Made by a program: the position numbers and the translations under genes | Part shown: piece after piece, positions 26,873-62,912 of the stretch | Layout of the letters: each line of letters begins with the position of its first letter | Position numbering within the stretch: position 1 is the stretch's first letter | Origin: Clostridia bacterium | Lineage (GTDB): Bacteria; Bacillota; Clostridia; Christensenellales; UBA1242 | NCBI GenBank assembly: GCA_045538455.1 | Contig: JAZSRL010000006.1 | Location: forward strand, 131,690 to 195,689 | DNA: 64,000 nucleotides | Reading direction: 5' to 3' | The notes under the pieces: model-generated | What the model saw: the letters and a program-made list of their open reading frames with translations, nothing else | Database searches by the model: none | What the model was told of the DNA's origin: nothing

Positions 26873-27541
26873 ATGAAATTATATGCAATTGAAGGAACGG
26901 ACGGATCTGGTAAAAAAACTCAAATAAAAAAATTATATGATTACTTTAAAGGGAAAGGGGCCGATGTTCATGTGGTATCTTTCCCTGATTACGACAGTCC
27001 AAGTTCGGGACCAATCAAAATGTACCTTTCTGGTGAATTTGGTGACGACCCAAATGTGTTAGATGCGTATCAAGCTAGCACTTTATATGCGGCTGATCGC
27101 ATTTGTAAAATGACCAAATTATTGCGCAAATTAAAACCGGATTCAATCATATTATTTGACCGTTATGTACAATCAAATATGTTACACCAAGCTGGTAAAA
27201 TTCAAGGTCGCAAAGAACGCGAAACTTTTATCCGCTGGGTCGATGATTTTGAATTTAATGTTTTAAAACTACCCCGTACTGACAAAGTTATCTTTATTGA
27301 TTTACCCGCTTCAAAAGCGATGGAATTGATTAACAAACGCGGCCAATTAAAAATCGGCGAAGAATTTGACAAAGACATTCACGAAGCGAACATGAATCAT
27401 TTAATCAATGCCTACAATGCCGGAGTCGAGGCTAGTGAAGTTTTCGGTTGGTCAAAAATCCAATGTTTAAATGAATTTGACGAAATCTTAACACCAGACG
27501 AAATTCACGAAAAAATTAAAAAAGCATTGGAGCTTGAATGA
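26873..27541 (+). CDS. tmk: Thymidylate (dTMP) kinase
   Basis: P-loop 'EGTDGSGKKTQ' and 'FPDYDSPSSGPIKMYLSGEFG'. I moved the start to ATG 26873 (MKLYAIEG). Synteny with holB follows. Confidence 0.75.
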   Translation: MKLYAIEGTDGSGKKTQIKKLYDYFKGKGADVHVVSFPDYDSPSSGPIKMYLSGEFGDDPNVLDAYQASTLYAADRICKMTKLLRKLKPDSIILFDRYVQSNMLHQAGKIQGRKERETFIRWVDDFEFNVLKLPRTDKVIFIDLPASKAMELINKRGQLKIGEEFDKDIHEANMNHLINAYNAGVEASEVFGWSKIQCLNEFDEILTPDEIHEKIKKALELE

Positions 27542-44067: not shown

Positions 44068-45540
44068 CTAACTCACTCGTTTACCGAGTTTGGAACAAAC
44101 TAAGAAAAGCACGAGTGCAAATCCAACAACAACCATTAAAGGGACAAAATCAATAATAGATTTTGATGTTGGCATAGAATCTCTTTTAGTAATAACCGCT
44201 TCAACACCTGCATGAGTCCAACCAACCTCATAGTTAGTCCCCTCAATTCTATACCAAAGCGTATAAGTTCCTGGGGTTTTTGCTGTAACGGCTTGAATAT
44301 TTTCATAACCAATCACAGAATCATCTGGCTGTTCACCACTTGTACAATAATAATAAATTGTACCTTCTCCAGTGGTAATATTACCAGTACCATTAAATAC
44401 AGAAATATTAGAACCCGTGTAAGATGTATCTGCACCTTCTATAGTTCCTTTTTCAAATACAGGTAATGCTCTTTCTATTGTTGCCGTTATACCGGTAGGC
44501 GTCCATGTAATATCGGCATAATTATCACAACTATGCATTCGGTAATATAACATATATTCTCCCGCATCAGCCTCTTTAATATCGGCAATATTCAAATAAC
44601 CAATTTTGTTTGGATGAGGTTCGGTCGTACTAGCATAATAAAGAATACGGTGATTTAAACATTCATCTGGACCAATTGCTTCTCCGGTAAACAATTGTTG
44701 CTTACTTCCATTGTATGGTTCGATAGAATTTGAGGCTTGCAAAGTACCAGTCTTCAAATATCCTGTTGGTTTGGCAATTGTAGTCGAGATGCCCATGTAG
44801 GTAATATCTGATGCTTCGAAATATTCATTACCTTCTATCCAGCACCATAGATAATATGTACCCTCATCTGCTTTTTTTAGATTATCTATATCAGTCTCAA
44901 AAACATCTTGAATTGGTGTCCCAGGCATATACGGAGCGTAAGTACCACTCGTATGTGCATAATAATAAATTGTTCCAACTTTAGGCAGACCAGATGCTCT
45001 CCCATAAAAGAGAACATGCTCTTCACCGTCATAAGTAATCGGCCCCATCGAACCCAACCATCCGTTACTTGGTACTGCTTTACCAATTGTTACAGTTGTA
45101 GTGCCAATTTTTACAGGTTGATAATAAACAGTATAGCCGTCGTAATCAATGTAATATATCCTAAAATAGATATCATATGACCCCATTTCAACTAAAAACA
45201 TATAATCATTTTGTTCCCGCCAATCACCATCTTCGTTAATTCGAAACTGAATATAATACCCAGAATTACCAGTACTTGAACTTAAAGTCTTTGCCACACC
45301 CTTAGACCTAAAAAGGTTTAAAGGATATCCAGTATAAGGTATGGTTTCATAAATAGTCGGCAAATCATTCATAAAATCACTTGATGACCGATCTTCTTCG
45401 CGAAAATCTTCAGCATTGTAATTATTAACAGCACTTGAAATTTCAACATCAAAATGAGCTAATATAAAAGGTGCAACCGTAAAAATAGTAAACAAAACCA
45501 AAAATAAAAACACAGTTGTCATTGAAATTTGTTTTTTCAT
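44068..45540 (-). CDS. 490-aa membrane-anchored surface protein, mini-paralogue of the giant repeat protein
   Basis: N-terminal signal/TM 'TTVFLFLVLFTIFTVAPFILA'. Four to five repeats carry the same signature as the giant gene ('GTYYLWCWIEGNEYFEASD', 'GEYMLYYRMHSCDNYADITW', 'GTYTLWYRIEGTNYEVGW'). C-terminal TM 'FVPLMVVVGFALVLFLVC' plus a basic tail. Confidence 0.75.
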   Translation of the reverse strand: MKKQISMTTVFLFLVLFTIFTVAPFILAHFDVEISSAVNNYNAEDFREEDRSSSDFMNDLPTIYETIPYTGYPLNLFRSKGVAKTLSSSTGNSGYYIQFRINEDGDWREQNDYMFLVEMGSYDIYFRIYYIDYDGYTVYYQPVKIGTTTVTIGKAVPSNGWLGSMGPITYDGEEHVLFYGRASGLPKVGTIYYYAHTSGTYAPYMPGTPIQDVFETDIDNLKKADEGTYYLWCWIEGNEYFEASDITYMGISTTIAKPTGYLKTGTLQASNSIEPYNGSKQQLFTGEAIGPDECLNHRILYYASTTEPHPNKIGYLNIADIKEADAGEYMLYYRMHSCDNYADITWTPTGITATIERALPVFEKGTIEGADTSYTGSNISVFNGTGNITTGEGTIYYYCTSGEQPDDSVIGYENIQAVTAKTPGTYTLWYRIEGTNYEVGWTHAGVEAVITKRDSMPTSKSIIDFVPLMVVVGFALVLFLVCSKLGKRVS

Positions 45541-45547
45541 ATAATAA

Positions 45548-45576
45548 TATTTATCATAGGAAGAAAATTATGTAAA
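45548..45576 (-). promoter_or_regulatory. Candidate promoter of the 490-aa gene
   Basis: Minus strand: TTTACA (45576-45571), N17 ending TATGA, TAAATA (45553-45548), 7 nt, ATG 45540. It shares the 11-mer TATGATAAATA with the giant-gene promoter. Confidence 0.45.
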
Positions 45577-45589: not shown

Positions 45590-45621
45590 TTACAAAAAAA
45601 ACAACCACTTTCGTGGTTGTC
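45590..45621 (-). terminator. Rho-independent terminator after the giant gene
   Basis: Minus-strand RNA: GACAACCAC-GAAA-GUGGUUGU followed by U8. Confidence 0.8.
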
Positions 45622-45628: not shown

Positions 45629-48600
45629 TTATCTTCTTCTCTTGCGGATAATCATGTAGATTATGATCATCGCTGCTGAGACTGCTACTCCGACACCTAT
45701 GATGACAAACATTGTTCCATTTGTGTTTGTTGACTTTTCTATTTCTGGCTCGGGTTCCGGTTCAGGCTCTGGCTTGGGTTCCGGTTCTTCTGCTTTCTCT
45801 TCTAAACTATAATTAAAGACTCCGGATTCTACTTTACTACTATCTAATGTTTCTGCGTTATTCAATTCGTTCCATGCTTCAAAATTTTCTAAGTATGTTT
45901 GTAGTGTGTTGTAGTCCAATCCAGATAATGCCATGTATGCGCTCGCTCCATTCGCAACTTTACCAGAACTGTGTACCTCTTCGTTGTCCTTGTTATAGAA
46001 TTTACATTCAATATAATCACTTGCGTCTTCGTTCAACAATGCTACAAATACTATGTCGCGTGTTGCCGTCATTCCAAACTCGTATGGCATGTTTTCGTCT
46101 TCTGTATACCAGCCTAAAATGTAACCACCAAAGATTTCTGCCAAGTCGTTCCCGTCTTTGTCTACATTTACTTGTGGTAAGATTATCAAGTCGCCTTCTT
46201 TTATTAATTGACCACCTTGACTTGAGTCTTCGCTTGTGTTGTACCAGCTTCCATCTCGCGCTACTGCATAACGGTTTGTTCCATTATCTATGATCCATTC
46301 CACTCTATATATTGTTTCGTCTATCGCAAAATATTGTGCATATAACACTACTGTTTCGTTGTCGGTATAAGTCATGCTTCCATTTCCATAGTGTTTACCA
46401 CTTCCTGTTATTGAATCATTCCAACCGTTTGTTATTAATTCTATTTCGTTTTCTGTTGTTTTCGTATATGTATTTTCTTTTAAGGTTAAATCAATACCAT
46501 GCCATTTCCAGTCTTCTTCTATTGTTCCTTCCCCACCGTTTGCATCATATGTTATTTTGTATAATTCGTACACATACAAGTAAGTTGTTTCTTCGATTAA
46601 TCCTTGGTTAATTGCTGTTTGGTTTACTATCTCACTGCTCAACAGTATGCTTAATTTTGTTGCTTCTGCTAATGTTTCACTGCTCATATAGAAATATCCA
46701 GCACTTACTACTTCAACACGAATCAGCGCATTATCATTCGCTTCACTTACATCAGTTATGCCAAGTGTTAATTTTCCATTCTTTGCTACTGTTCCTTCTA
46801 CTCTGAATACTGCTGTTTCGTATGTCGTTGCGCCGTCTAAATCAACCCATGCTCTTACTGTTGGGAACCCATGTTGAGCGTTATAATCTCCCATTACGAT
46901 TTCAACAACTCGATTGCGTTTTACAATATAAGTACTGTATTCACCTGTTTGTTCGAAATCATAGAAGTTAGCGTCATCATTTGGAGCTGTTAATTTCAAT
47001 TTAAATTCATATGTTCCTAATTCTGCATTTTCCAATGCACCTGCTTCCCAAGGAGTCCATCCTTCTGTTCCACTCTTGCGATAGAAGTATTGAATGTGAT
47101 CTGCAATTTCTTCATTCATAAATGGATATGAGCCATTAATGTATGTCATTTCTCCATCTTCATAAACCGCTTTCAAGGTGTTTTCCCCAAAGGTCAGTTT
47201 ATTTATTGTTATCGTTATGAGTAATGGTGTTGAGCGTCCATCGCTTTCACATACTTCATTTGGTACAAATGTGAATATCGTATCATTGTAATTAATTCTG
47301 TAGTACACATTATATGTGCCGGTATTTTTCAACTCTAACACTGGACGATACACATTTCCATCTAGGCTATATTCAAAGAATGGTGCATTTTCAGTTAAAT
47401 TTCCTTCGTCTGTTGACAACTCAGCACCTTCAAAGATAATTTCTTGTGATTCGCCTGTGTACATCATTTGTTTTGATTGTGGTCGACTTACAACTGACAA
47501 TGTATAGCTTTCTACTACTATTTCTAATTTTTCACCAGTTGTATTATCTTCTGTACCAACAAAGTTATAATTTTCACTTGTGTGAACTCTGTACCAAATT
47601 GTATAATTTCCAGCTTTATCTGCTTCTGGCATATCTTTTTGCCATGTGCGTTGACCTACTTCTGGTGCATCAAGTGTATATTCGACATATAATTCTTCAT
47701 TTTCAGTTGCAGTCAACACACCCGCTTCTATCAATGGAATGTTATAACCTGGATATTTCAAACCTGTTTTTGCGGTTGGTCTTTGTTCCCATTGAACATC
47801 ACAGCTGGTAATTTCTACTGTCAATGTTTTTGCTTCAGATTCTACAAAGTTTCCTGTTGTAGATGCTGTTACATAATATGTTATTTCATATGTTCCTACA
47901 TTTTGTTTTCCTGGTAATGCTGCATCATTCAACCATACATGCTTGTTTTCAGATTGGTTAAATGAATAACTGTATTTTATATTTGGTGCATCATTGTAGA
48001 AGAATACGATTTGAGAACCTTCTAAGCCAGCACCGCGATCACCTTCTATGCTTGCCAATGCTCCGAATGTTATCAAGTCTTGGATCGTTCCATTGTAAGT
48101 TAATTCTTCTTTTGCTTCTGGTACTGCACTTAAGCCTATTCCTTCTATATCAGCTGCAACTTTAGCTATTTCTACATCTGCAGTAAATTCTGTAAGTTCC
48201 CAGTTGTTATTTTCAGCATCTGCTTCAATATAGTAATAAATTTCGTATACTTTTGCATCTGTTGCTTTTAATTCTTCTATGTCAACAGTTAATATTTCTT
48301 CAGCTATGATTGCATATTTTACAACTAAACCTGTTGCTTCAATATATTCTCCATTTACTGCACGGAATTTAATAATTGGTGCGCTTTCTACCAAGTTTTG
48401 TTCTGTTCCGGTGTATTTTAAACCAGTTTTAACAATCAAATTCTCTTCTAAACAAATATCAGCTTGACCAATATTAATTGTCTTATAATGTTTTGCCTTA
48501 AATGCGTTGAAGTTTTTACTTTCATTTTCTACACGAACCCAAAGGTAATAATCACCAGCGTTTGTTCCTTCTAGTTCATTTATATCTTCAACCCAAGTTG

Positions 48601-51600
48601 TTGGTGCTGTTATCGTGTCTTCACTTAAACCCCATTCGCAGACAAGGTCTGGATTTAATTCGTGAGTATTTAAGTTTATACCATTATTGTCTAATGTAAT
48701 TGTAGTTTTTCCGTCAATGAATGTTGCTAACGATTGTGCTTGCCCAATATAAACTAATCCCTCGTTTTCACTAATTCCAATATTACTTAAACTTAATGTA
48801 GCTTTGAAAATTTGTGCAAATTCTTCTTCAGAATAAAGTTTTACATAATCATTTATATTTTTTTGGTTTGTAACTGAATTGGATTTAGTTGTTACTTTAA
48901 TCCATATGTAATATTTATCCGCATCGCGTGCTTCCAAATCCGCAATCTCAGATACATAACTTGCTGGTTGAATTTCTGGGTTGTTTGAATATCCGTATTC
49001 AACAGATTCAACATTTTCAGCATTTAAAGTGTTTCCATTAATATTTTGGACTACTTCTGTTGTAATTAAGTCTTGGTTTTGTCCATTGTATGTCAATGCT
49101 TGGTTAATGTTTATGCCACTTAATTCTATGTTGTCTCCTGTCGCTGGTGTAATTGTAACTTTTGCGACATATTTACGATCGATACTTGTGTGGTTTTCTC
49201 CTGCTTCAAACGCAACCCAAATATAATAAGTACCGGCATTTAATTCTGTTACTTCACTTAAATTGTACGCACGGTCTTCTTTAGTGGTACCTTCGGTTGT
49301 AAATTCATCTCTGTCTCCGCTAATGTAGTATTTGACAGTACCTAAATTACCTTCCAAATCTGTACCATTTCCCATTTGTAGTTTCGGCGCAGATGTAATT
49401 AAGCGAACTTCTTCACCTGTGTATACCAAGTCGTCTTCTTTGGCAATACCCAATCCTACAATATTTAATTTGAGTCCATCAATGCGTGTAATTTCTGTCA
49501 AACTGTCGCCTAATACTGGCACAATATAATCAGTAGATTGGTCAATATTTGTGGTTGTTGTTAACCATACAAATAATTGGTATTTTCCAACTTGCGTTTC
49601 TTTTGCGTCCGCAAGACTGCCATACCATGTTGAAGTCTTTGTCGGTTCGAACTCACCTTCGCCTACAAAACAATATTTAATGTCAGTTATTTCTTTATCA
49701 GTAATTTCTTTGTTGGTTGTTGGAATAATTGCAATTAATTCACCTGCTGCTATTGCTTGTTCATCGCCTGAAAACTCTTTTGGAGTTGCATTAATACCTG
49801 AAAGTTTAATATCCGAATGTTTTGCCGGTGCGATAATTGCTGCATAGTTTGTAAAGGCAACTACTTCACTCTCAATACAACTTCCGTCTTCAACTTTTAC
49901 AAACACAATTAAGTAATATGTGTCCGCGTTCGTTTGTTTCAGTGTTTTGTAATCAGTACTCCAACCATTTGCAATCAAATCACCTTCAATGGACGGATAT
50001 ACAGATGCATCATCACTTAAATAGTAGTATGGTGTATACGCATAATCTTCATTTGGTACTACTTTGTATTGACTGGTTTCTGCACTATTTGGAACGCTTA
50101 CTTTTAGAGCAAAGCCACTAATCAATGCTTGACCTTCAGCATTAAAGCGTAAATCTTCAATTACTGTCACTGTCGATTGGTCATATTTTTGTTCAGATGC
50201 CAAATTAATCTTAATTGCGTAGTTTTTGTTGTAACAAACTGGATCAATACCTTTGTGGTTCTTACCACTATCATCTACGCGTACCCAAATATAATAACTA
50301 CCTACTTTGCGTGCTTTCAGGTCTGCGAAGTTTGGTGTCCAGCAATCTTCTTCAATTGCCGGTGCTTCTGTATTTGAACTTGTCAATGCGTAGTAAATTT
50401 TACCCATTGTTTGACTTTCGGCACCAGTCGAATATTTTATACTTGTTCCGTTGATTGTGTAATCCAACGCAGCTTCTAAGAATGTATGATCCGCTGCATT
50501 GTAATCATATTCGTGTTCTTTTGTCCATGTACATGCTTGCATGGTAATTTCCGCACGCTGAATTTTAACTGTAATACTACTTGGCGATACCGCACTTTCG
50601 TTTTGACTAGCCGCAACATAACGATACCATAATGTGTATTCTCCTGCGTCTTTTTGACTTGCTAAGTTATCAAATGAAACATAATTTGCGTCGGTATTCC
50701 ATGCATACTCTAATTCACGATTTTCTTCTCCAATTATAGCAAAACCTTTTGTAATCAATTCGCTTGCTGTTCTTGATTCTCCATTGTAAATCACATCATT
50801 AGATTGCGGGATAATTGCTGTCGCATCTTGTGGATAAATTGTTACCTCATAATATGGATAACCTGTACTTGGTTGTGATTCCGCAACGAACGATCCATCA
50901 CTCGTAGCTGCACCGCGATAGTAAATTTTATAGGTACCTGCAGTAGTCGGACAAACTGCGTCACCATAAGCCGAGAAGGTTGTACCATTTAATGAATATT
51001 CCACCGCTGGCGAAATTTGCGCACTTGGTATAATCAAGTCTACCGGTGAACCATTGGCAACTAATCTATCTGTTTTCTTTTGTGGTTGTAAGTTACTGTC
51101 AACAAATGAACTTGCCGCCACAATTTTTGCAGTTTTATTGGTATTAATTGTTGTCGCCAAATTAACATTTTTGTCGTTAATGGTAACCTTTACCCATAAG
51201 TAATACGCTGACTTCACTGCTGTCGCCTCTGCAGCCGCAATTGTATCTACCCAACCACTTGTGCTTGCGGTTATTCCTGAACTCTGATCCGAAATTAAAT
51301 ATTGATAAGATACTGTGCCGTTATATGCTGCACCATTGAAGTTAATACTTGGTATTGTCGATGTCGCATCAAACAATGCTTGACTCTTCGCTATGTATGT
51401 TCTTGCCGAAGTCGAGAAGTCATATTTGAAAACCGAACCATTACTGCTCTTGGCGGTGGCAATATCCTCACTTTTCAATGTAACTTCGTTTGTACCTAAA
51501 CTGGTTATTTGCGTAATTTTGAATTTAGGAACAACCACATTACTTTCGTAAGAGTAACGGTAATGTGTTGAACCCGCTTTGACATTGTCTCCACCCGTCC

Positions 51601-54600
51601 ATTTTACCCAAATATAATAGGTAGTACCACAATCTTTAATGCCCAACTGACCTATTGCATCAATACTATAATAACTGGTTGATGCTTCCGTTTCAGTACC
51701 GACCGCGAACGACAAGGTACCAAATTCGTCGGATGTAATTTGGGCATTGTTTACGGTAGCCGTCGGTGTTTCCGATTTGGTTGCTAATGTATATGCACCG
51801 TTTTTAAATGGTTTACTGAAAACATGACTTGTATCTGGTGTGCCCCAGTTGCTGAATGACAAACCCGTAAATTCCAAGTTCGCATCCAATGCAGTGTACT
51901 TGTTAACTTGCAATGTCCCATAAATCTCACCGTTCGATGCCGCAACAGTCGGGCTGGCATCCCATTTCACCCATAAATAGTACGGTGTATCCTTCGCCGC
52001 GGTGACTTCAAGCGTACTTAAATCTTCTGTCCATGATGATGATGATGGTTTAGTTGTTGCATCGTTTGTAAAAGCATAATAGGTGGTTCCCAAGTCAACT
52101 TTTTCTGTTGCCTTAGCGGCACCAGTCGCCAATTTATATGGACTGCCGCTGTAAGTAACTGTACCGGCTCTAATGTCTGATGTCGCGCCCGTCATAGTCA
52201 AACCATCCAAAGTTACATCGTCAAAACCAGCAACGGTAAAGCTGTCGCCCAAGAATGTGGATCCGGTTGTCAGGTTTGCGTGTTGAAGAACTCTGAACCA
52301 TAAATACCATGTTGTCGCTTGGTTAACAGTTTCCTCTTTAATTGCCGCATTCAAAGCCTCTGCATTCAAAGCCTCTGCCGTGGTATATGGTTTATATCCA
52401 CTACTTGGCGCTGTCGAAGCTGTCGTCAAAATATATTGCAATTGATTGGTATTGTTTGTCTCGCCGTTTAATGAAAGTTGTTTGGTGGTAATACCATTAT
52501 CTGTGTCAATACCACAAACTTTTAAATCCACAGCCACGCTTGAATATGGCGTACATACCGCATTGGCATTTAATTTTAAAGAAGTATTATATGTCAAACC
52601 ACTGACCGTCACATTGTCAGGTGTCGCAGCAATTTGATTAATCCTTGTCGTACCAATTTCCTTATAACTTTCTTGCGTGCTGTATTGATAAACTGCAGTA
52701 CCTGTTACATTTTTTAATGTCCATTTTGCATAAACTTTAATTGTCGCAGCGGAAGTGCCAGTAAAAGAACTATAGTTACTATACTCATTTACCAATGTAC
52801 GACCATCAATATATGTCCTTACCACCTTATACATAACATCAAAATGTGATGTTGGTGCGGTGGATGTTAAGGTTGGCGCTTGGGCAAATACAGCATGGCT
52901 TTGTCCATCGTAGTTACATTCCCCTGCCAAATTCGGGGTGATTGACAAACTTGCTTTGCCAATGGTTGCGTAGACATCCGCATTGTTTGCGTCCTTAACT
53001 ATCGCCCAGCTCGTGCCGCTACAGTTTGCCGACTCGGTCAAGCGATACCATAAAAAGTATTTGATTTGTTCGGTTGCGGATGTCCAACCGTCTTGGGCTT
53101 GCAACGCCGACAAATCCGTGGTGACCGTGCTGGATATTGGCGCCGTCGCCGACGCAAGTGTGGAATATCCGTATTCAATGGATTGACCCACAGATGTACC
53201 GTCATAGATGTGTCCAGCACCAGTAAACAGTGTTAGACCTTCACCGGTATAAAACAAATTTGTCTTTGCTGTTAACACCGATGACCCTTTGTTATCTAAT
53301 TTTGGTGTTGACATTTCAATCGTGGCCGCAACAGGACCCGACCAAGATGTGTGGTTGTCATAATTTGCACTGCCGTTAAAACGATACCAACAATAATAGG
53401 TACCAAAATTTGTACGCGTCAAGGTTTCTACATCCTCAACACCGGTCACAGTCGATGCTGGTGCAGCGTTTTCGTCGGTTACATAGTACTCTATGTGACC
53501 GTCGGTTACGGCTACATTATCGCTATCTAATGCAACTTTTGAACCTGTAAACAAAATTTGTGCGCTATTGGTAAATGGCATCAAATTCGGATGCGCCGTA
53601 ATTGTACCAGTTCCTTCTTTAGTTATATTAACAGTTGCGCGTGCCATGGTTGCACGAAGATTCGAATATACCCACCCAGTTGTTGCTGCACAGTTAGTCG
53701 TACCATTTTGTTGATACCACAAGTAAAACTCACCCGTTCCAACATTTGTTGATACTAAATCACTAACATCTGTCTTAACATTAGCATTGGTCACAGCAAC
53801 GGTTGGTGTAGCTGAAGTACCCGTCACATAATAATAAATTGTATCACCATCACCCGTACTGTTTGCCGCCGCATTTTCTACGCCTACGGCTTCGAACAAT
53901 TTTTGGGAATTTTTGTTATAGGTCAAACTTTGTGCCACAAGTGAACTGTTTGCAGTGAATGTCGGTGCGGCAAGCTTGGAAATTGTTTTGCTGAGATATG
54001 TTCCGTCGGATAATTTAACCCTCTGCGCAGGAACTGCGGTACAATAGTCGGTTGCGTCAACTTTGTACCACAAATAATAGGTACCAATTGCTTGGCCTGC
54101 TGCAAGTTTTACAGCAGAAATATCAGTTGTCCAATCGCCTGTTGCTGCGGAAGATGAACCAAGTGCGTATTGAATCTTTCCGTTACTGTCTGTATAACCA
54201 GCACCTTTAAACAAAGTCCGTGCCTCTTGAGCATTAAAATATACGGCGTCAGTTGTTGCAACATCCAAACTATCTTTTTCTAATTTACACTCGTCTTTTT
54301 TGTCAATAATAACCGATTTGGATAAATAAACTGGTGAGTCAATATGTGATGTATTTTCCGTTTTTTCATCGATACTTGATTTTGCAAAAATATAATAAGT
54401 ACCAGGTTCCTCTGCAGCAAGCGACAACACGGTACCCCATTCGCCAATTTTTGTCGCATCGCTCCATGCGCTGGATGTATTTAAACAATACACGAATTTC
54501 GACAAGTCGCCATTAGTACAAACCGCTTCCAAAGTCGAATTCGGACACACATATTGTGAACTGCCGTTCCATTCCAAACCAGTTTTAACACTAATATTTG

Positions 54601-57283
54601 AACCGTCCAATTTAGGGTCAGCTTGTGGTTTAATTATCACCGATTTATTTGCCGATTTCCATCCGGTATCTTCGTAATTACCATTCTCTGCCACCCTAAA
54701 GAGCAGATAATATGTTCCTGCATTTTTAATTTTCAATGATGTTGTTGCTTGCGCGGTATTTCCTTCCGCTGGTGTACCGTCACTGGTTGTTGCCCACCCA
54801 TAAGTAATTGCATCAGTTGCTGTGTTACCTGTTGTAACAGTTATTTTACCACTAAACGGATATCTATACTCATTATTAAAGGTATATTCAGCTTGTGCTA
54901 CAGCGCAGTTGTTAGTAAAGTCATATTGATCACCTTTGGCAATTTCATTGTAAACAGTCGAATACGCCCATTCGGTGCCGGCGTAGTTACCTTTGCCGGT
55001 AGATTTATACCACAAATACCATGGTCCCGCATTAGTTGGTTGTGCCGCAGCCGCCGAATTATAAGTTGTATTAGGGATTGTCATTACATCCGACCGAGTC
55101 GACAAACCATAAAGAATGGTACCATCACCGTATTCAAAGGCTGCTTCGTTTTTAAACAATTGCTGCGGAGAACCATTGTATTTTGCCGTAGTAGTATATT
55201 TCGCCAAATTGTTTGGTTTTAATTTTGACGCAGCCGCAGTCACTTGCACAGCAGCAAGACCAGCCTCCTCCCAAACATGGTCGTCCCAACATTGGATATC
55301 ATTTACTTTTTTACCTTCTAATTTATACCATAAGTAGTATGTACCAATATTCGCAGCTTTCACTTTTGTGATATCACTCTCTCCAGCGACAGTGGGAGCA
55401 TCTGACGCAGACTTACCGAGCGACAATGCATATTTAATCGTACCAGAACCTTTCGTGATGGTACCATTACCCTTAAATAACTGAACACCGCCCGACTTCC
55501 ATGCAACAGTGGAGCCAACCACAAAAAGTCCGGCCGCAGAAATATCGGTTGCAGCTTTATAAATTATTTTATCACCCAAACCAGATTTAGTCCACCCCAC
55601 CGCTGTATAATTCGTATTTGATTCACGACGGTAATACAAAGTGTAAGTACCCGGATATGTTACTGTCGGCAAACTGGTACTACCACCCGTGTTGGTGTCA
55701 TTTGGTTTATTTCCAGTTGTTGTCACAGCGTAATAAACGGTACCACCCACACCGCCAGCAGCTTTACCAGCAGTAAACATAGTAATACTGCTGCCCGTGT
55801 AAGATTGCTTTTGCGAAGTATAAAAAGACAAGTTGCCATCATCCAGTGTACCTGTACCTTGGGAAACGGTCGCAGTAGCGACTTCGAGCCAAGAAGTGTC
55901 ATTCCAGTTGCTGTCGCCGGTAATTTTGTACCATAAGGTATAGGTTCCAACACCTAATTCCGTGGTAATATCAGAAAGTTTTGTTACAGTTGTTGACGGT
56001 CCGGTTGCATTCGCCGCGGTCGAATAACCGTAGGTAATACTACCGCCACCAGCCAAACCATCAGACACAGTTACCGAACCCGAGAACAACGCCGCACCAG
56101 TCCCGTATGTACCGTTTGTCGCTGTCGGCTCTTTGGTAATATAACCCGGAGTTAGGTCGGATTTGGTAATAGTGAGAACTGCTGGCCAAAGTTCGAACCA
56201 AGACAATGCATTATAATTGTCATCGGCAGTTGCCATACCGTATAAATTATACGTACCAACATTGGTTGCGGTAAACGTATTTTTTATATAATCCAGTGTA
56301 AAACCCAAAGATACTTCAGGCTTAGACGTGGAAACCATGTAGTATTCAGTACCGCCAAACGCTCCAAAACTTACATACCCAGAGATCTTATGCCCGTTTG
56401 AATCATAAGCCACAGTCTTCGCCTCCCCGTATGGAGAGCTCCCCAAAACCCCATTATCGCCTTTTGACACTGTCGCGGAGAGACCTGTATAGAAAGTTCC
56501 TGTATTAAAATACGGGTTCTGCTGCACTTCACACCATAAGTAATTTGTACCGGCACCATAGGCTATTACCTCATCCTGCCTGTCATAGCGCTGCGTTGTG
56601 GCACCCGAAACACTGCTCGAGCTCGAGTGCGCGAAATATTTCACGTAGCCCGCCAATTCAGCCCAATTCTCAGTAAACCCGCCTGAGCCAGTAAACAAAG
56701 TGGGGCCGTTTCTCGTGAAAGGCTTCAAATCAGGGCACATCTTCAGATTACTTTTCGCAGTCCCCCCCGGCAAAGACACTCCACTAATACTTCCCTTGCT
56801 CACTGTTACCGTGCCGATATTCTTCCATTCAGAATACCGAGAATAAGCACTCCAACTATCGCTACTACCTGGCGTAATATGGTATATTAATCGGTATTGA
56901 ACCGTAGTTGTAGTACCGATTCCAAAAAGTCCCCAGTTACCCGTATTGCCTGCGAACGTAGACACAGGGGCCATCTCAATACCCCCATAAACTGTTCTAT
57001 ATTGGACTGTAAAAAGACCCGATTCCGGATTTGGGGCCGTTTTAATAGGATTTGTAGAGTAACCATTATAAGTAATCGAACTATAAACCTCGGGGGTATT
57101 AGTGATATATTTAGACGGATTAAAATTATTGCCAGGATCGGCAGCCTTTAAATTGGAAATTTCGTAGTTGGTTAATTGTTTAATTCCAAACAAATTTGCC
57201 GCGAACGGAAAAGCAGCCACCGCCGCCAAGACCGCGATTAAAACAAAGATAGTCGATTTTAATTTATTCCCCAATTTCCCCAT
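45629..57283 (-). CDS. Giant (3,884-aa) membrane-anchored surface repeat protein, putative adhesin
   Basis: One uninterrupted 11,655-nt ORF. N-terminal signal/TM 'IFVLIAVLAAVAAFPFAA'. I counted about 30 occurrences of a repeat signature such as 'GTYTLWYKITGDSNWNDTSW', 'GTYYLWYKVDATDY', 'GTYYIWVAFEAGENH' and 'GNYTIWYRVHTSENYNF', spaced roughly 100 aa apart. Near the C-terminus are two Listeria-Bacteroides-type repeats ('YKITYDANGGEG...GWNDS...VLYAQY'), then an (EP)n linker, a TM helix and 'RKRRR'. Confidence 0.85.
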   Translation of the reverse strand: MGKLGNKLKSTIFVLIAVLAAVAAFPFAANLFGIKQLTNYEISNLKAADPGNNFNPSKYITNTPEVYSSITYNGYSTNPIKTAPNPESGLFTVQYRTVYGGIEMAPVSTFAGNTGNWGLFGIGTTTTVQYRLIYHITPGSSDSWSAYSRYSEWKNIGTVTVSKGSISGVSLPGGTAKSNLKMCPDLKPFTRNGPTLFTGSGGFTENWAELAGYVKYFAHSSSSSVSGATTQRYDRQDEVIAYGAGTNYLWCEVQQNPYFNTGTFYTGLSATVSKGDNGVLGSSPYGEAKTVAYDSNGHKISGYVSFGAFGGTEYYMVSTSKPEVSLGFTLDYIKNTFTATNVGTYNLYGMATADDNYNALSWFELWPAVLTITKSDLTPGYITKEPTATNGTYGTGAALFSGSVTVSDGLAGGGSITYGYSTAANATGPSTTVTKLSDITTELGVGTYTLWYKITGDSNWNDTSWLEVATATVSQGTGTLDDGNLSFYTSQKQSYTGSSITMFTAGKAAGGVGGTVYYAVTTTGNKPNDTNTGGSTSLPTVTYPGTYTLYYRRESNTNYTAVGWTKSGLGDKIIYKAATDISAAGLFVVGSTVAWKSGGVQLFKGNGTITKGSGTIKYALSLGKSASDAPTVAGESDITKVKAANIGTYYLWYKLEGKKVNDIQCWDDHVWEEAGLAAVQVTAAASKLKPNNLAKYTTTAKYNGSPQQLFKNEAAFEYGDGTILYGLSTRSDVMTIPNTTYNSAAAAQPTNAGPWYLWYKSTGKGNYAGTEWAYSTVYNEIAKGDQYDFTNNCAVAQAEYTFNNEYRYPFSGKITVTTGNTATDAITYGWATTSDGTPAEGNTAQATTSLKIKNAGTYYLLFRVAENGNYEDTGWKSANKSVIIKPQADPKLDGSNISVKTGLEWNGSSQYVCPNSTLEAVCTNGDLSKFVYCLNTSSAWSDATKIGEWGTVLSLAAEEPGTYYIFAKSSIDEKTENTSHIDSPVYLSKSVIIDKKDECKLEKDSLDVATTDAVYFNAQEARTLFKGAGYTDSNGKIQYALGSSSAATGDWTTDISAVKLAAGQAIGTYYLWYKVDATDYCTAVPAQRVKLSDGTYLSKTISKLAAPTFTANSSLVAQSLTYNKNSQKLFEAVGVENAAANSTGDGDTIYYYVTGTSATPTVAVTNANVKTDVSDLVSTNVGTGEFYLWYQQNGTTNCAATTGWVYSNLRATMARATVNITKEGTGTITAHPNLMPFTNSAQILFTGSKVALDSDNVAVTDGHIEYYVTDENAAPASTVTGVEDVETLTRTNFGTYYCWYRFNGSANYDNHTSWSGPVAATIEMSTPKLDNKGSSVLTAKTNLFYTGEGLTLFTGAGHIYDGTSVGQSIEYGYSTLASATAPISSTVTTDLSALQAQDGWTSATEQIKYFLWYRLTESANCSGTSWAIVKDANNADVYATIGKASLSITPNLAGECNYDGQSHAVFAQAPTLTSTAPTSHFDVMYKVVRTYIDGRTLVNEYSNYSSFTGTSAATIKVYAKWTLKNVTGTAVYQYSTQESYKEIGTTRINQIAATPDNVTVSGLTYNTSLKLNANAVCTPYSSVAVDLKVCGIDTDNGITTKQLSLNGETNNTNQLQYILTTASTAPSSGYKPYTTAEALNAEALNAAIKEETVNQATTWYLWFRVLQHANLTTGSTFLGDSFTVAGFDDVTLDGLTMTGATSDIRAGTVTYSGSPYKLATGAAKATEKVDLGTTYYAFTNDATTKPSSSSWTEDLSTLEVTAAKDTPYYLWVKWDASPTVAASNGEIYGTLQVNKYTALDANLEFTGLSFSNWGTPDTSHVFSKPFKNGAYTLATKSETPTATVNNAQITSDEFGTLSFAVGTETEASTSYYSIDAIGQLGIKDCGTTYYIWVKWTGGDNVKAGSTHYRYSYESNVVVPKFKITQITSLGTNEVTLKSEDIATAKSSNGSVFKYDFSTSARTYIAKSQALFDATSTIPSINFNGAAYNGTVSYQYLISDQSSGITASTSGWVDTIAAAEATAVKSAYYLWVKVTINDKNVNLATTINTNKTAKIVAASSFVDSNLQPQKKTDRLVANGSPVDLIIPSAQISPAVEYSLNGTTFSAYGDAVCPTTAGTYKIYYRGAATSDGSFVAESQPSTGYPYYEVTIYPQDATAIIPQSNDVIYNGESRTASELITKGFAIIGEENRELEYAWNTDANYVSFDNLASQKDAGEYTLWYRYVAASQNESAVSPSSITVKIQRAEITMQACTWTKEHEYDYNAADHTFLEAALDYTINGTSIKYSTGAESQTMGKIYYALTSSNTEAPAIEEDCWTPNFADLKARKVGSYYIWVRVDDSGKNHKGIDPVCYNKNYAIKINLASEQKYDQSTVTVIEDLRFNAEGQALISGFALKVSVPNSAETSQYKVVPNEDYAYTPYYYLSDDASVYPSIEGDLIANGWSTDYKTLKQTNADTYYLIVFVKVEDGSCIESEVVAFTNYAAIIAPAKHSDIKLSGINATPKEFSGDEQAIAAGELIAIIPTTNKEITDKEITDIKYCFVGEGEFEPTKTSTWYGSLADAKETQVGKYQLFVWLTTTTNIDQSTDYIVPVLGDSLTEITRIDGLKLNIVGLGIAKEDDLVYTGEEVRLITSAPKLQMGNGTDLEGNLGTVKYYISGDRDEFTTEGTTKEDRAYNLSEVTELNAGTYYIWVAFEAGENHTSIDRKYVAKVTITPATGDNIELSGININQALTYNGQNQDLITTEVVQNINGNTLNAENVESVEYGYSNNPEIQPASYVSEIADLEARDADKYYIWIKVTTKSNSVTNQKNINDYVKLYSEEEFAQIFKATLSLSNIGISENEGLVYIGQAQSLATFIDGKTTITLDNNGINLNTHELNPDLVCEWGLSEDTITAPTTWVEDINELEGTNAGDYYLWVRVENESKNFNAFKAKHYKTINIGQADICLEENLIVKTGLKYTGTEQNLVESAPIIKFRAVNGEYIEATGLVVKYAIIAEEILTVDIEELKATDAKVYEIYYYIEADAENNNWELTEFTADVEIAKVAADIEGIGLSAVPEAKEELTYNGTIQDLITFGALASIEGDRGAGLEGSQIVFFYNDAPNIKYSYSFNQSENKHVWLNDAALPGKQNVGTYEITYYVTASTTGNFVESEAKTLTVEITSCDVQWEQRPTAKTGLKYPGYNIPLIEAGVLTATENEELYVEYTLDAPEVGQRTWQKDMPEADKAGNYTIWYRVHTSENYNFVGTEDNTTGEKLEIVVESYTLSVVSRPQSKQMMYTGESQEIIFEGAELSTDEGNLTENAPFFEYSLDGNVYRPVLELKNTGTYNVYYRINYNDTIFTFVPNEVCESDGRSTPLLITITINKLTFGENTLKAVYEDGEMTYINGSYPFMNEEIADHIQYFYRKSGTEGWTPWEAGALENAELGTYEFKLKLTAPNDDANFYDFEQTGEYSTYIVKRNRVVEIVMGDYNAQHGFPTVRAWVDLDGATTYETAVFRVEGTVAKNGKLTLGITDVSEANDNALIRVEVVSAGYFYMSSETLAEATKLSILLSSEIVNQTAINQGLIEETTYLYVYELYKITYDANGGEGTIEEDWKWHGIDLTLKENTYTKTTENEIELITNGWNDSITGSGKHYGNGSMTYTDNETVVLYAQYFAIDETIYRVEWIIDNGTNRYAVARDGSWYNTSEDSSQGGQLIKEGDLIILPQVNVDKDGNDLAEIFGGYILGWYTEDENMPYEFGMTATRDIVFVALLNEDASDYIECKFYNKDNEEVHSSGKVANGASAYMALSGLDYNTLQTYLENFEAWNELNNAETLDSSKVESGVFNYSLEEKAEEPEPKPEPEPEPEPEIEKSTNTNGTMFVIIGVGVAVSAAMIIIYMIIRKRRR
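46035..46561 (-). other. Listeria-Bacteroides (Flg_new)-type repeat region of the giant protein
   Basis: 'YKITYDANGGEGTIEE...TNGWNDSITGSGKHYGNGSMTYTDNETVVLYAQY' and '...GGYILGWYTEDENMPYEFGMTATRDIVFVALL' match the remembered pattern xFDxNGG...GYxFxGW...LYAxW. Confidence 0.5.
56762..56768 (-). repeat. G7 (coding strand) homopolymer in the 5' part of the giant ORF
   Basis: The plus strand reads tCCCCCCCgg. The coding strand reads TTG CCG GGG GGG ACT (LPGGT), at about codon 173. It is currently in frame. Confidence 0.9.
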
Positions 57284-57292
57284 AATACCTAT

Positions 57293-57321
57293 TATTTATC
57301 ATATTAACGAAATAATGTAAA
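57293..57321 (-). promoter_or_regulatory. Candidate promoter of the giant gene (inside the mtaB-like 3' end)
   Basis: Minus strand: TTTACA (57321-57316), N17 ending TATGA, TAAATA (57298-57293), ATAGGTATT (9 nt), ATG 57283. Confidence 0.45.
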
Positions 57322-58326
57322 ACGGATTTTGTCGAATCGTGCGGTGACGATATGATTAGGAATAGGTTTCATTTTCGCGGCCGGCGTACCGGTACGCGGA
57401 GAATACGGAAAGATGTGCACATGGTCCAATTTTAAGGTTTGAAGATAGTTTAATGTCGTTTCAAAATCGGCTTGAGTTTCGGTTGGGAAGCCCACAATTA
57501 AGTCAGTGCCGAATGTAGCGTTTTTAAACGCTGCACGCAGAGAGGCAATGATTTCCGCGTACTGCGCAGTCGTATAATGACGGTTCATAGCTGCAAGTAC
57601 AGCGTCACTGCCCGATTGTAAACAAATATGAAAATGTGGCACAAAGTGAGTACACTGCCGCAGTGTGTCAATTAACTGCGGGGTCATCATGGGCGGTTCC
57701 AGACTGGAAATCTCCCACGCAATACCGCAAGCGTCAACAGCGCGACACAGCTCATCAAAATGCGGATAGTAACACAAATTAATGCCGCACAGTACCACGG
57801 AAGTTACATGCGAACCTTGGGCTTTAATTTCGGCAACGACTTCATCAATCGGACGATACGACAATTTATTTCGCAGGTGCGGAATAATACAATAGGTACA
57901 AAAATTTTGGCAGCCATCTTGAACCTTGATAAACGCTTTTTCGCGGCGGTGATGCACGGTCACGGCATCGGTGACTCGGGACTGCCCCGCTTTGATTTTA
58001 TCCGCGATTTCCAGTGCCACCATTTCCGGTGTCTTACGACCAAAGGCGCAACCCATGCCAACCAAGATAGCCTGTGGGTGATATTTCTTTATCTTAGAAA
58101 CGCCGTAACGGGACTTCTTTTCCGCCATACTGGTCACCGCACATGAATTTACCACAAAACCCGCAGCGTGCGGCAGACGCGAAATGGCGCCGTCTGTGAC
58201 CATCTGATTTGGGATACCCATGGCGTCCAGTTGCGAGGCTACGGCTTCACTTTCGTAATAATTAACTTTACAACCGTAAGTGATAATGTAGACTAACGGT
58301 GCTTGACTTTGCATATCAAACAGCAT
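57304..58326 (-). CDS. Radical-SAM methylthiotransferase (MtaB/MiaB family), apparently lacking the TRAM domain
   Basis: MTTase N-domain 'YIITYGCKVNYYESEA' and radical-SAM cluster 'VQDGCQNFCTYCIIPHLRN'. The ORF ends at 340 aa, where family members normally continue into a 60-70-aa TRAM domain. Confidence 0.7.
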   Translation of the reverse strand: MLFDMQSQAPLVYIITYGCKVNYYESEAVASQLDAMGIPNQMVTDGAISRLPHAAGFVVNSCAVTSMAEKKSRYGVSKIKKYHPQAILVGMGCAFGRKTPEMVALEIADKIKAGQSRVTDAVTVHHRREKAFIKVQDGCQNFCTYCIIPHLRNKLSYRPIDEVVAEIKAQGSHVTSVVLCGINLCYYPHFDELCRAVDACGIAWEISSLEPPMMTPQLIDTLRQCTHFVPHFHICLQSGSDAVLAAMNRHYTTAQYAEIIASLRAAFKNATFGTDLIVGFPTETQADFETTLNYLQTLKLDHVHIFPYSPRTGTPAAKMKPIPNHIVTARFDKIRFTLFR

Positions 58327-60256: not shown

Positions 60257-60838
60257 ATGTCAAAACATATTCCCAATATCATAACTATTATTCGTATTGC
60301 ACTTTTGCCGTTTGTCTTCTTTTTTTATCTGACAGACTTTGTGCCTTACAGCCAATTCATTGCCATCGCAATTTTCTTGGTTGCCGCAGGTACCGATTTC
60401 TTAGACGGCATGATTGCACGCAAGTATAATTTGGTTTCCAATATTGGAAAATTACTTGACCCGATTGCAGACAAAATGCTGTATTATACTGGTCTCTTCT
60501 TAATCATTGTGACAAACATTTTACCAATTTGGGCATGCGTTATCATCTATATGATTAACCTTTGCCGTGATTTCGCCATTGACTGTTTACGCATGATTGC
60601 TGCTACCAAAGGTTCCGTGTTGGCAGCTAATGTATTCGGCAAGATTAAGACCATCATCGCGTTTGTTGCTACGCCATGGGTTTTATTACAAGGCTGCATT
60701 TCAACGAATTGGGCCGGTTTTACGGCGTTTGCAATCATCGGCTTTGTTTTAATGGCCGCTCAAACATTCTTTTGTCTATTATCTGGGATTATTTATTTAG
60801 CACAAAACCGCAAAGTTTTATCCGATACTAAAGCGTAG
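60257..60838 (+). CDS. pgsA: CDP-diacylglycerol--glycerol-3-phosphate 3-phosphatidyltransferase
   Basis: 'PNIITIIRIALLP' and the CDP-alcohol motif 'DFLDGMIARKYNLVSNIGKLLDPIADK'. The start is moved to ATG 60257, behind GGAGGTG. Confidence 0.85.
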   Translation: MSKHIPNIITIIRIALLPFVFFFYLTDFVPYSQFIAIAIFLVAAGTDFLDGMIARKYNLVSNIGKLLDPIADKMLYYTGLFLIIVTNILPIWACVIIYMINLCRDFAIDCLRMIAATKGSVLAANVFGKIKTIIAFVATPWVLLQGCISTNWAGFTAFAIIGFVLMAAQTFFCLLSGIIYLAQNRKVLSDTKA

Positions 60839-62912
60839 TATCAACACTTACATTGACTTCTAATTTCACAGGCAAGTGGACGGTATTCTCCATTTGCCTT
60901 TTTACTATTTCACTTACGATTTCGACTTCATCTTCCACACAATCAAAGACTAATTCATCATGAATTTGTAAAACCATTAAACTTTTCAAACCGCGTTCGG
61001 TCATTTCTTTGTCGATGTTAATCATAGCTTTTTTAATAATATCTGCCGCACTACCTTGCATTGGCATATTCATTGCTGCACGAGTTGCAAAAGCAACCAC
61101 ATTGTTGTTGTTCGCGTACAATTCAGGTATATAACGACGACGACCAAACATTGTCGATATGTAGCCGTTTTGTTTTGCACTGGACACACATTGATCCAAG
61201 AACGCTTTTACTTTCGGAAAGGTCGTAAAATAATTTTTAATAACTGCTGCAGCTTCATGAAATCCACAATGTAAATCTTTAGCTAAACCAAATGATGATA
61301 TACCATATATAATACCAAAATTAACCGTCTTGGCTTCACGACGACGATTAGCATCACCAAACAACTTTTCCGCAGTTTCACGATGAATATCAGCACCACT
61401 GTTAAACCCTTTAATTAGACTTTCTTCACCAGACAATGCCGCTAATAAACGCAATTCAATTTGTGAATAATCGGCGGACAAAATTTTACCATTCTCAAAA
61501 CGCGAAACAAAGACTTGACGAAATTTCGCACTATCTGTTTTGCGTTGTGGTATGTTTTGCAAATTTGGTTCACTTGATGACAAACGCCCTGTTGCTGTTT
61601 TGTCAACATTAAAAGTAGTGTGGATTAACCCTTCTAAATCAACGGCATTACCATAGCCGCGCACATAGGTCGAATACAATTTATACTTGCCGCGATATTC
61701 CAAAACCTTAGCCGCTAATGGCACAGTCGGCGCTAACTGTGTCAATACTTCTTCATTGGTCGAATAACCGGTTTTAGTTTTCTTGGTTAAGTTTACGCCT
61801 AGCTTGCGTTGCAAGACATCACTCAATTCTTGCGTAGATTTGATATTAAAAGTTTCACCAGCCAAAGCAAAAATCTCGGCTTCCAAACTGGCAATTTCAT
61901 TTTCCAATAGTGCACCTAAGGCGTTTAAAGCCGCTACATCAACTTTAATCCCGTTAATCGACATTTTACTTAAGACCGGCAACACGGCAGCATCTAATGC
62001 CTTGCTTTCGTCTTTAACATCGCCAAACAATGGTGGCACCGGTTTAACAACAGTTGCACCACTAACCCATATATCACGGCGTAACAAACTTTTAAATCCA
62101 GCCTGTTCAAACTTCTTTTTGACATTATCGTCAAATGGAAAAACAAAAGGACAATCAGCAAGTGAAAATTCAATCGGAACATCACAATTAATAGCTGCAA
62201 GTTTTTTTGACATTTCAACTTGCTCAACACAGTCATTAATTTTTTTATTTGCCGCCGATTCAATCACGGATTCAACCGAACCATACTTTTGAATTAAGGC
62301 TACCGCGGTTTTTTCACCAACACCAGCAGCACCAGGGATATTATCACTCTTGTCACCCATCAAGGCTTTTACATCAATTAATTGAGATGGTGTTAAACCG
62401 TATTCTTTTTGGATACGATCCACTGTCCACACATCTAAATTAGTAACTCCTGTCTTTGTTAAATGCAATTCCACATTGGGAGCAACCAACTGTAATCCAT
62501 CGCGGTCAGCAGTTAAATTGATAACCATTGCATCTTTAATTTGTTTTGCGATTGTACCAATAATATCATCGGCTTCATAACCAGCACATTGATAAATTTT
62601 CACTTGCATCGCTTGCAAGATGTCTTTTAATTGATCAAATTGAACAGCCAAATCATCTGGCATCTTGTGACGGTTAGCTTTGTATTGTTGATACATTTTA
62701 TGACGGAAAGTTGGTTGACGCATATCAAAAGCCACGCACACATATTTAACTTTCAAATCCGTAGCGGCTTTGATAAACATATTAAGAAACCCGTAAACAG
62801 CATTTGTTGGCATACCACCAAAACTCAATTCACCGATTTCACCACGCCCACCAAAAGCATAATACGCACGGTTTAACAAACTATTACCATCAATAACTAA
62901 TATTTTATCCAC
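60828..62912 (-). CDS. polA: DNA polymerase I, compact form (5' nuclease plus polymerase, no 3'-5' exonuclease-like domain)
   Basis: 5'-nuclease 'ILVIDGNSLLNRAYYA' and 'LMGDKSDNIPG'. Polymerase motifs are 'DYSQIELRLLAALSG', 'RREAKTVNFGIIYG' and 'QIHDELVF'. It is only 694 aa, and the polymerase thumb region follows the nuclease after about 25 aa. Confidence 0.9.
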   Translation of the reverse strand: MDKILVIDGNSLLNRAYYAFGGRGEIGELSFGGMPTNAVYGFLNMFIKAATDLKVKYVCVAFDMRQPTFRHKMYQQYKANRHKMPDDLAVQFDQLKDILQAMQVKIYQCAGYEADDIIGTIAKQIKDAMVINLTADRDGLQLVAPNVELHLTKTGVTNLDVWTVDRIQKEYGLTPSQLIDVKALMGDKSDNIPGAAGVGEKTAVALIQKYGSVESVIESAANKKINDCVEQVEMSKKLAAINCDVPIEFSLADCPFVFPFDDNVKKKFEQAGFKSLLRRDIWVSGATVVKPVPPLFGDVKDESKALDAAVLPVLSKMSINGIKVDVAALNALGALLENEIASLEAEIFALAGETFNIKSTQELSDVLQRKLGVNLTKKTKTGYSTNEEVLTQLAPTVPLAAKVLEYRGKYKLYSTYVRGYGNAVDLEGLIHTTFNVDKTATGRLSSSEPNLQNIPQRKTDSAKFRQVFVSRFENGKILSADYSQIELRLLAALSGEESLIKGFNSGADIHRETAEKLFGDANRRREAKTVNFGIIYGISSFGLAKDLHCGFHEAAAVIKNYFTTFPKVKAFLDQCVSSAKQNGYISTMFGRRRYIPELYANNNNVVAFATRAAMNMPMQGSAADIIKKAMINIDKEMTERGLKSLMVLQIHDELVFDCVEDEVEIVSEIVKRQMENTVHLPVKLEVNVSVDTTL

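Follow-up and report, generated by a model that had tools for sequence, protein, structure and literature searches.

Ebh, a giant protein of staphylococci, has a rod of alpha-helical FIVAR/GA and DUF1542 repeats. In place of an LPXTG sorting signal it has a membrane-spanning anchor at its C-terminus, and it has been described as a protein of unknown function that interferes with clumping by steric hindrance (PMC4856396). The same paper cites work that ties Ebh to cell size and to complement resistance (PMC4856396). Giant surface proteins decide what uncultured gut anaerobes attach to and how they are seen by phages and hosts, and most of them are annotated as 'hypothetical'. Here we analyze a stretch of 64,000 nucleotides, termed the window, from a rumen/cecum Clostridia bacterium (assembly GCA_045538455.1, contig JAZSRL010000006.1, positions 131,690 to 195,689 of the forward strand). 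The window contains a giant gene at 45629..57283 on the minus strand, whose 3,884-aa product is probably a Sec-exported, type-I membrane-anchored, Ebh-like surface fibril that presents a variable, probably ligand-binding tip.

The giant protein resembles Ebh and Embp of staphylococci in its very large size, its N-terminal signal, its long tandem-repeat rod and its single C-terminal transmembrane (TM) helix, and also in the debate over whether it serves adhesion or has a steric or envelope role. Unlike Ebh, to which it has no sequence relationship, it lacks Pfam matches to FIVAR, GA and DUF1542, and its repeats are predicted to be all-beta. The giant protein is thus a known kind of thing, a giant tandem-beta-repeat fibril with an Ebh-like anchor, and involves no new system or mechanism. 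What is of value is a domain family outside Pfam and NCBIfam, a subfamily of syntenic giant genes with positionally orthologous repeats, and a tip that differs from that of the closest relative.

Architecture of the giant protein

The first-pass annotation of the window had read the 11.7-kb stretch as one giant open reading frame (ORF), and this was borne out. The ORF is single and uninterrupted, starts with ATG and encodes a protein of 423.5 kDa with a pI of 4.6, to which a protein from a 235,895-bp NCBI contig (P0152) is 100% identical; it lies on the minus strand, as do all its features given below. The protein contains two hydrophobic segments only, at aa ~4-35 and ~3854-3881 (Kyte-Doolittle >1.6). 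The first belongs to a putative signal-like segment (aa 1-34, 57182..57283), in which MGKLGNKLKS precedes a hydrophobic core and FAAN; the orthologues likewise start with MGNKRKAS and a hydrophobic stretch. The second contains the predicted C-terminal TM helix (TMFVIIGVGVAVSAAMIIIYMII, aa 3857-3879, 45647..45715), which follows the residues EIEKSTNTNG and is succeeded by the basic tail RKRRR (45632..45646), predicted to be cytoplasmic, and the stop codon (45629-45631). An (EP)n linker (EEPEPKPEPEPEPEPE, aa 3832-3847, 45743..45790), also listed as a DNA direct repeat, precedes the helix. No LPXTG motif was found near the C-terminus, LPXTG-like strings being present only at aa 2158, 2397 and 2520, and Pfam gave no SLH, LysM or choline-binding match in the giant protein. 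The N-terminal signal or TM segment, the C-terminal helix with RKRRR and the lack of these anchors had all been noted in the first-pass annotation, which had also placed the linker at exactly these positions. The sequence also agrees with its proposal of a stop-transfer anchor at the C-terminus: a signal-like N-terminus, one C-terminal helix, a basic tail and no sortase motif.

The C-terminal helix is among the most conserved parts of the subfamily (relatives P0003-P0020), where it reads (D/E)Y..MF(V/I)ILG(V/L)G...VY(I/L).MRKK, a conservation that exceeds the needs of a passive anchor. The version of this motif in the giant protein is TNGTMFVIIGVG, without the acidic-Tyr part. Moreover, there is a gradient of composition within the giant gene (window 46000-58000). 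The DNA for the N-terminal half has a GC content of 0.42-0.45 and encodes a Thr/Ser/Gly/Ala-rich sequence, and the DNA for the C-terminal third has a GC content of ~0.35 and encodes a Glu/Asn/Ile-rich one.

An old array of about 30 repeats

Between the two termini the protein consists mostly of repeats. We seeded a profile Hidden Markov Model (HMM) on 23 regular-expression matches and rebuilt it from the aligned copies. It finds 27 copies at i-E < 1e-3, which span aa 184-3361 and recur every ~110 aa on average. Together with ~5 degenerate copies (aa 67-154, two inside aa 1443-1696, and aa 3365-3443) this brings the total to ~30, in agreement with the ~30 recurrences of a GTYxLWYK-type motif, spaced by roughly 100 aa, that had been counted by eye. 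The main array (aa 369-3361, 47201..56179) holds 25 significant ~110-aa repeat domains and is broken by a degenerate stretch (aa 1443-1696, 52196-52957). The distal, hypervariable N-terminal region (aa ~35-368, 56180..57181), hereafter the tip, holds two to three degenerate copies, with weak matches at aa 184-272 and 311-362. Since the repeat HMM is derived from the giant protein itself, we relied on three independent checks, namely a regular expression tested on shuffled sequences, a profile search of a database and an hhalign comparison with a generic form of the module. In the first of these, a strict GTYxLWYK-core expression matched the giant protein 16 times, whereas 1,000 shuffles gave 0.017 matches on average and never more than 1; the other two are described below.

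The repeat consensus is Y-x-G-x4-L-x2-G ... I-x-Y ... GTYYLWY ... N, and so includes the accompanying Y(N/T)G..Q.L and I(K/E)Y motifs that had been noticed previously. Copies are ~22-25% identical to each other at the protein level. Inside the gene, DNA repeats are restricted to motif-sized matches of 20-39 nt, none being longer than 39 nt. The array is therefore old, without recent amplification, as had been deduced earlier from its strong divergence at the DNA level, and is not of a kind that collapses easily during assembly.

To get an idea of the fold, we modeled one copy (aa 675-792) with AlphaFold2, using a multiple sequence alignment (MSA) of 27 rows that consist of internal and paralogue copies. 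The model is all-beta with a pLDDT of 89.6 and a pTM of 0.78. A tandem array of such small, predicted all-beta domains fits the fiber that the first-pass annotation had envisaged. In Foldseek searches the repeat model has no significant neighbor, neither in the PDB (best E 0.38, TM 0.35-0.46) nor in the viral BFVD (best E 0.15; a PKD domain with TM 0.51). The top non-significant neighbors are all sandwiches of the Ig-like/cadherin/PKD/Hoc/BIg type: cadherin EC1, PKD, Hoc, the BIg domain of SiiE and the S-layer protein EA1. Ig-like phage decoration proteins also show weak sequence matches to the repeat, the sole echoes of this sort. Pfam models for Big_1, Big_2, Big_3_5, PKD and Cadherin have no at-threshold match on the giant protein or on single copies.

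The nearest structural neighbors of the repeat are thus stalks of the SiiE/LapA type, none of them at a significant level (best E 0.38 and 0.15; TM <= 0.51). As modeled, the giant protein would resemble SiiE, LapA/MpIBP and the Ig-like stalks of phage Hoc in being a chain of ~100-aa beta-sandwiches, an extender that presents a distal region. It differs from SiiE and LapA in that it lacks RTX features, with no Pfam match to HemolysinCabind or related domains, and ends in a TM helix rather than in a type I secretion system (T1SS) signal. Moreover, the anchor would here be a membrane helix in a single-membrane cell: we infer a Gram-positive-type cell from Firmicute-type genes, namely those for RNase Y, MurC and sporulation sigma factors.

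The repeat belongs to a large family without a Pfam or NCBIfam model

Searches of the whole giant protein against Pfam-A (E <= 1) and NCBIfam returned nothing, and 22 single repeat copies gave no consistent match to Pfam at E <= 10. We ran an exhaustive HMMER search with the repeat profile against 1.84 billion cluster representatives. It matched 3,107 of them at E <= 1e-3, 922 at E <= 1e-10 and 173 at E <= 1e-30. A word-indexed homologue search found nothing with three repeats and a single 216-aa fragment with a repeat alignment. The best ~20 relatives are 3,000-4,946 aa long, have a signal-like N-terminus of the type MGNKRKAS... and end in a C-terminal helix with a basic tail, an architecture shared by ~22 of the top 40 relatives by score. 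More distant relatives contain a version of ~90 aa, YxGxxQxL...GTYxVWYKVxGDxNH, attached to other anchoring parts. When aligned by hhalign, the window repeats and this ~90-aa module match over 86 columns with a probability of 99.4% and an E-value of 5e-21. By profile comparison, the window repeat is a lengthened form of a widespread ~90-aa extracellular module that lies outside Pfam-A and NCBIfam.

Judged from their tail sequences alone, some relatives end in SLH-like (ATRAQAAQMLKNF) or T9SS-like (GVYIxNGKKVVIK) parts; others carry dockerin, BspA-type LRR or Big_2 domains, as confirmed by Pfam. Being joined to such varied anchoring parts, the module is apparently a generic extracellular building block that is used across several anchoring types. 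In the relatives, too, the module goes unmatched by Pfam and NCBIfam models, and only summed weak CopC scores appear. We rejected CopC membership, since these scores add up weak stretches, none of which passes singly. Literature searches found no description of the repeat or of the subfamily. The analysis thus outlines a large repeat family that comprises at least 3,107 cluster representatives, apparently uses several anchoring types, and has neither a model in Pfam or NCBIfam nor a solved structure.

The first-pass annotation had tentatively likened the repeat to the MBG-type modules of giant adhesins, an assignment that is tempting but wrong and that our analysis corrects. Repeat and MBG_2 (PF18676) are of a similar size class, and their short motifs come in a similar order (Y-(N/D)-G, then aGtY, then NY). 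Both modules are parts of large surface proteins and are found together in some relatives. However, no match to MBG, MBG_2 or MBG_3 (PF17883, PF18676, PF18887) was found on the whole protein (E <= 1) or on the 22 copies (E <= 10), although the same Pfam library does detect MBG_2 in the relatives P0084 (173.6 bits) and P0132. In P0084, a distant relative, genuine MBG_2 domains are interleaved with the repeat module, and the repeat HMM misses the MBG_2 segments. Finally, when compared by hhalign with a reference alignment of 18 genuine MBG_2 domains, the only MBG family used in this comparison, the window repeats reached a probability of 0.9% and the generic ~90-aa module one of 2.4%, and only the aGtY mini-motif aligned. 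MBG_2 is therefore a distinct family at the profile level, and it is extremely improbable that the giant protein is an MBG-type adhesin.

A conserved membrane-proximal C-terminal module

Between the array and the (EP)n linker lies a membrane-proximal module (aa 3436-3831, 45791..46978; the conserved block was analyzed up to aa 3835), which is the best-conserved part of the subfamily. It is 30-48% identical across 21 relatives and has 32 invariant columns; in one fragment (P0153) it is 98% identical to that of the giant protein. Its AlphaFold2 model (pLDDT 87.5, pTM 0.76) matches Gram-positive shaft and tip pilins in Foldseek searches, namely SpaA (E 3e-6, prob 0.99), PitA, SpaC and Spy0128, and more weakly BcpA and Cna B (E 0.006-0.016). 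Linear (tandem) ubiquitin chains match as well. Global TM-scores to the pilins are low (0.16-0.26), which is to be expected of strings of several domains. The module is thus predicted by modeling to be a string of small beta domains, some pilin-shaft-like and some beta-grasp-like.

The Gram-positive pilins SpaA, PitA, Spy0128 and BcpA, together with Cna B, are therefore the best structural matches of this module. In contrast to pilins, the giant protein has no C-terminal LPXTG, no pilin motif and no sortase in the neighborhood that was scanned, the global TM-scores are low, and the module is one part of a 3,884-aa monomer rather than a polymerizing subunit.

The B-repeat of InlB is reported to have a beta-grasp-like fold. 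Two segments of the module, at aa 3575-3652 (46328..46561) and, more weakly, at aa 3659-3751 (46031..46309), resemble the Listeria-Bacteroides repeat Flg_new (PF09479), and the tandem-ubiquitin matches fit such a fold. However, in the giant protein both stretches stay below the Pfam gathering score: Flg_new reaches 21.5 bits over the two stretches in a 190-aa excerpt and 17.2 bits in the whole 400-aa module, the cut-off being 27. Across the modules of the giant protein and of 22 relatives, Flg_new matches 5 of the 23 sequences (best E 1.3e-6). The earlier claim of a pair of Listeria-Bacteroides repeats is plausible, if weakly supported: two stretches are present and some modules match, but the giant protein itself remains sub-threshold.

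The giant gene is inherited in a fixed slot

Giant repetitive genes are often misassembled, and the closest match that we found in a collection of species-representative genomes, the metagenome-assembled genome (MAG) 'Clostridia bacterium RGIG7181' from water-buffalo cecum, has the gene split over short contigs. Could the ORF have arisen by collapse or chimerism during assembly, or be a pseudogene in decay? This is hardly conceivable. The gene contains no DNA repeats longer than 39 nt and has a dN/dS below 1. RGIG7181 together with two JGI metagenome contigs covers aa 1-1263, 1879-3073 and 3118-3884, that is 83% of the protein, in a collinear manner, and collinear orthologues of 3,237-4,946 aa are present in assemblies from other projects.

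The orthologues are found in the same slot. The order radical-SAM gene, giant gene, rplM-rpsI recurs in three related loci (L002, L005 and L007); for a fourth (L006) the downstream flank, the only side that was recovered, agrees with this order. Logan SRR33448122 (L005) and JGI 3300010998 each have one giant, of 3,440 and 4,203 aa respectively, in the order radical-SAM (MiaB-like), giant gene, rplM, rpsI, mreB-like and M50 peptidase. In GCA_016283155.1 (L006, JAEEMI010000025.1 1-24694) there are two tandem giants of 4,946 and 4,897 aa, nearly 30 kb of coding sequence, located upstream of the same rplM-rpsI-mreB-M50 run. In these three assemblies the giant orthologues are 31-33% identical to the giant protein over a single collinear high-scoring segment pair (HSP) of 2,800-3,500 residues, and the neighboring proteins are 59-95%, mostly 73-95%, identical to those of the window. 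A single collinear HSP means that the repeats keep positional orthology, without concerted evolution. By synteny and collinearity, the giant gene is genuine and vertically inherited. It belongs to a subfamily of 3,000-5,000-aa proteins that is passed on in a fixed slot across the related uncultured assemblies examined, and whose positionally orthologous repeats have diverged to ~31% identity.

The tip differs from that of the closest relative

Compared to RGIG7181, the giant gene has a dN/dS of 0.58 over aa 1-1263 and of 0.38 over aa 1879-3073, versus ~0.06 for the flanking rny, radical-SAM gene and polA. By this measure it is among the fastest-evolving genes of its neighborhood, which suggests that the protein is exposed and under diversifying or relaxed pressure. 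The first-pass annotation had assumed that such a gene is kept under strong selection. This stands as far as the presence of the gene is concerned, in view of the conserved slot, the collinear orthologues in three other assemblies and a dN/dS below 1, but not for its sequence, which changes faster than most of its surroundings.

The divergence is strongest at the tip. Codon windows at aa ~100-400 are only 32-50% identical to RGIG7181, with saturated dS, whereas the flanking genes are 97-99% identical, and blastn gives no alignment with RGIG7181 over window positions 56180-57117. Judged from these alignments, the distal tip is a cassette-like replacement relative to RGIG7181. A diversity-generating retroelement or template repeats were considered as the source of this variability and rejected, as the giant gene is not part of any long direct or inverted repeat. 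This ~330-aa distal region, which differs sharply from that of the closest MAG found, is a concrete target for ligand screening and for strain typing in rumen metagenomes.

Proposed function and alternative explanations

Taken together, the architecture suggests the following arrangement. The giant protein would be exported via Sec, and the C-terminal helix with RKRRR would stop transfer and hold the tail within the membrane, while the cell wall would be spanned by the (EP)n linker together with the conserved pilin-like C-terminal module. About 30 beta domains would form a stalk that, at ~3.5-4 nm per Ig-like domain, would place the N-terminus roughly 100 nm away from the cell. The N-terminal ~330 aa would then be the exposed functional and antigenic tip, with plant particles, host mucus or other cells as the most probable carriers of its ligand. 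Adhesion, which the first-pass annotation had also proposed, with a host or a partner cell as possible targets, would be the simplest function to assume, and since no ligand-binding, lectin-fold or enzymatic domain was recognized in the giant protein by the Pfam and NCBIfam scans, it is the architecture from which we infer it. The missing binding domain counts against an adhesive fibril, and so do a few other points. Cleavage of the signal peptide, surface exposure and expression are assumed, and the length and rigidity of the fiber are estimates. The assignment of the repeat to the Ig-like class comes from a model whose 27-row MSA was made up of internal copies, and from Foldseek matches that are non-significant. 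The high dN/dS could also reflect relaxed constraint rather than diversifying selection.

As the main alternative to an adhesin, the protein might be a non-adhesive envelope component, either a steric shield in the form of a dense brush or spacer of long fibrils, for instance against phages, host factors or other cells, or a factor with a role in envelope architecture or cell size, as has been proposed for Ebh; the variable tip would then be an exposed antigen only. Ebh, which shares the anchoring logic, is described as hindering clumping sterically (PMC4856396), and the absence of a detectable binding domain as well as the housekeeping neighborhood conserved across four related assemblies are consistent with such a role. 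Gene neighborhood alone, however, is weak functional evidence, and a pure spacer would not need its tip replaced between close relatives whose flanking genes are 97-99% identical. The latter argument is weakened by the fact that an exposed tip might acquire the same pattern under attack by immune systems or phages. On balance, we consider a purely non-adhesive role unlikely. The conservation of the C-terminal helix and its flanks (DYxxMFVILGxG...VYxxMRKK) raises a different issue. The segment could be a sorting signal, in which a sortase- or rhombosortase-like enzyme cuts (D/E)Y..MF(V/I)ILG.G, followed by wall linkage or polymerization, and the resemblance of the C-terminal module to sortase-assembled pilin shafts would fit this. 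We regard such processing as very unlikely, since there is no C-terminal LPXTG-like motif, TNGTMFVIIGVG of the giant protein lacks the acidic-Tyr part, no sortase is found among the six Pfam-scanned flanking genes or in the related loci, and the TM-scores to pilins are low. A more far-reaching interpretation, which we think is quite doubtful, would combine several of these features. The giant protein and its orthologues, which share one chromosomal slot in four related assemblies, would form a clade-defining envelope organelle, a permanent ~100-nm fibril coat whose conserved helix and pilin-like base use an unrecognized machinery for assembly or sorting at the membrane or wall, and whose cassette-like tip serves strain-specific recognition of partners or substrates. 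If this were true, the ~90-aa repeat would be a major, structurally uncharacterized extracellular family awaiting definition.

A small paralogue and the genomic neighborhood

Just past the stop codon of the giant gene, an intrinsic-terminator-like hairpin, ACAACCAC-GAAA-GTGGTTGT followed by a T-run, can be read from the sequence of the minus strand (45592..45620); the palindrome scan lists it on the plus strand only. Downstream of the giant gene and past the hairpin lies a gene for a small paralogue of 490 aa (44068..45540, minus strand), which has a signal-like N-terminus, a C-terminal TM helix and the tail KLGKRVS. It contains three significant repeat copies and one weak N-terminal match, and its aa 38-434 are collinear with aa 37-456 of the giant protein at 22.8% identity. 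An independent JGI contig (L003, 94.7% identity) likewise has the small paralogue after the giant gene, but it is not found in the same slot of L005, L006 and L007.

Both genes are preceded by a 32-nt element on the minus strand (TTTACAT.AT.T...ATGATAAATA), located at 57290..57321 for the giant gene and, as an 81% identical copy, at 45545-45576 for the small paralogue. These elements end 4-6 nt before the two start codons and were not called as promoters in a consensus promoter scan. They are too near to the ATG for a standard promoter with a leader, and could be a shared regulatory site or belong to transcripts with a very short leader. No structured RNA was found near the giant gene. Its neighborhood is of the housekeeping type (rny, rplM-rpsI, mreB-like and M50 peptidase), conserved in the four related assemblies examined, and neither a glycosyltransferase nor a dedicated secretion gene is present among the six Pfam-scanned flanking genes or in the related loci.

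Some further features of the window and of the related assemblies were of note. The PolA homologue (60828-62912, minus strand) is 694 aa long and has 5'-3' exonuclease and polymerase domains, without a Pfam 3'-5' exonuclease domain, and this short form is conserved in related assemblies. The neighboring MiaB-like radical-SAM protein has 340 aa and no TRAM-domain match, and the MreB-like protein has 274 aa. In L005, a compact Cas9 (748 aa) is encoded with cas1 and cas2 at 23781-27176, between the M50 peptidase gene and rpsF; this set is absent at the equivalent position of the window. Finally, two adjacent ORFs at 29425-30528 and 30605-31597 on the minus strand, of 367 and 330 aa, have in common a stretch of 300 nt that is 72% identical at a spacing of 1,180 nt, and look like a tandem gene duplication.

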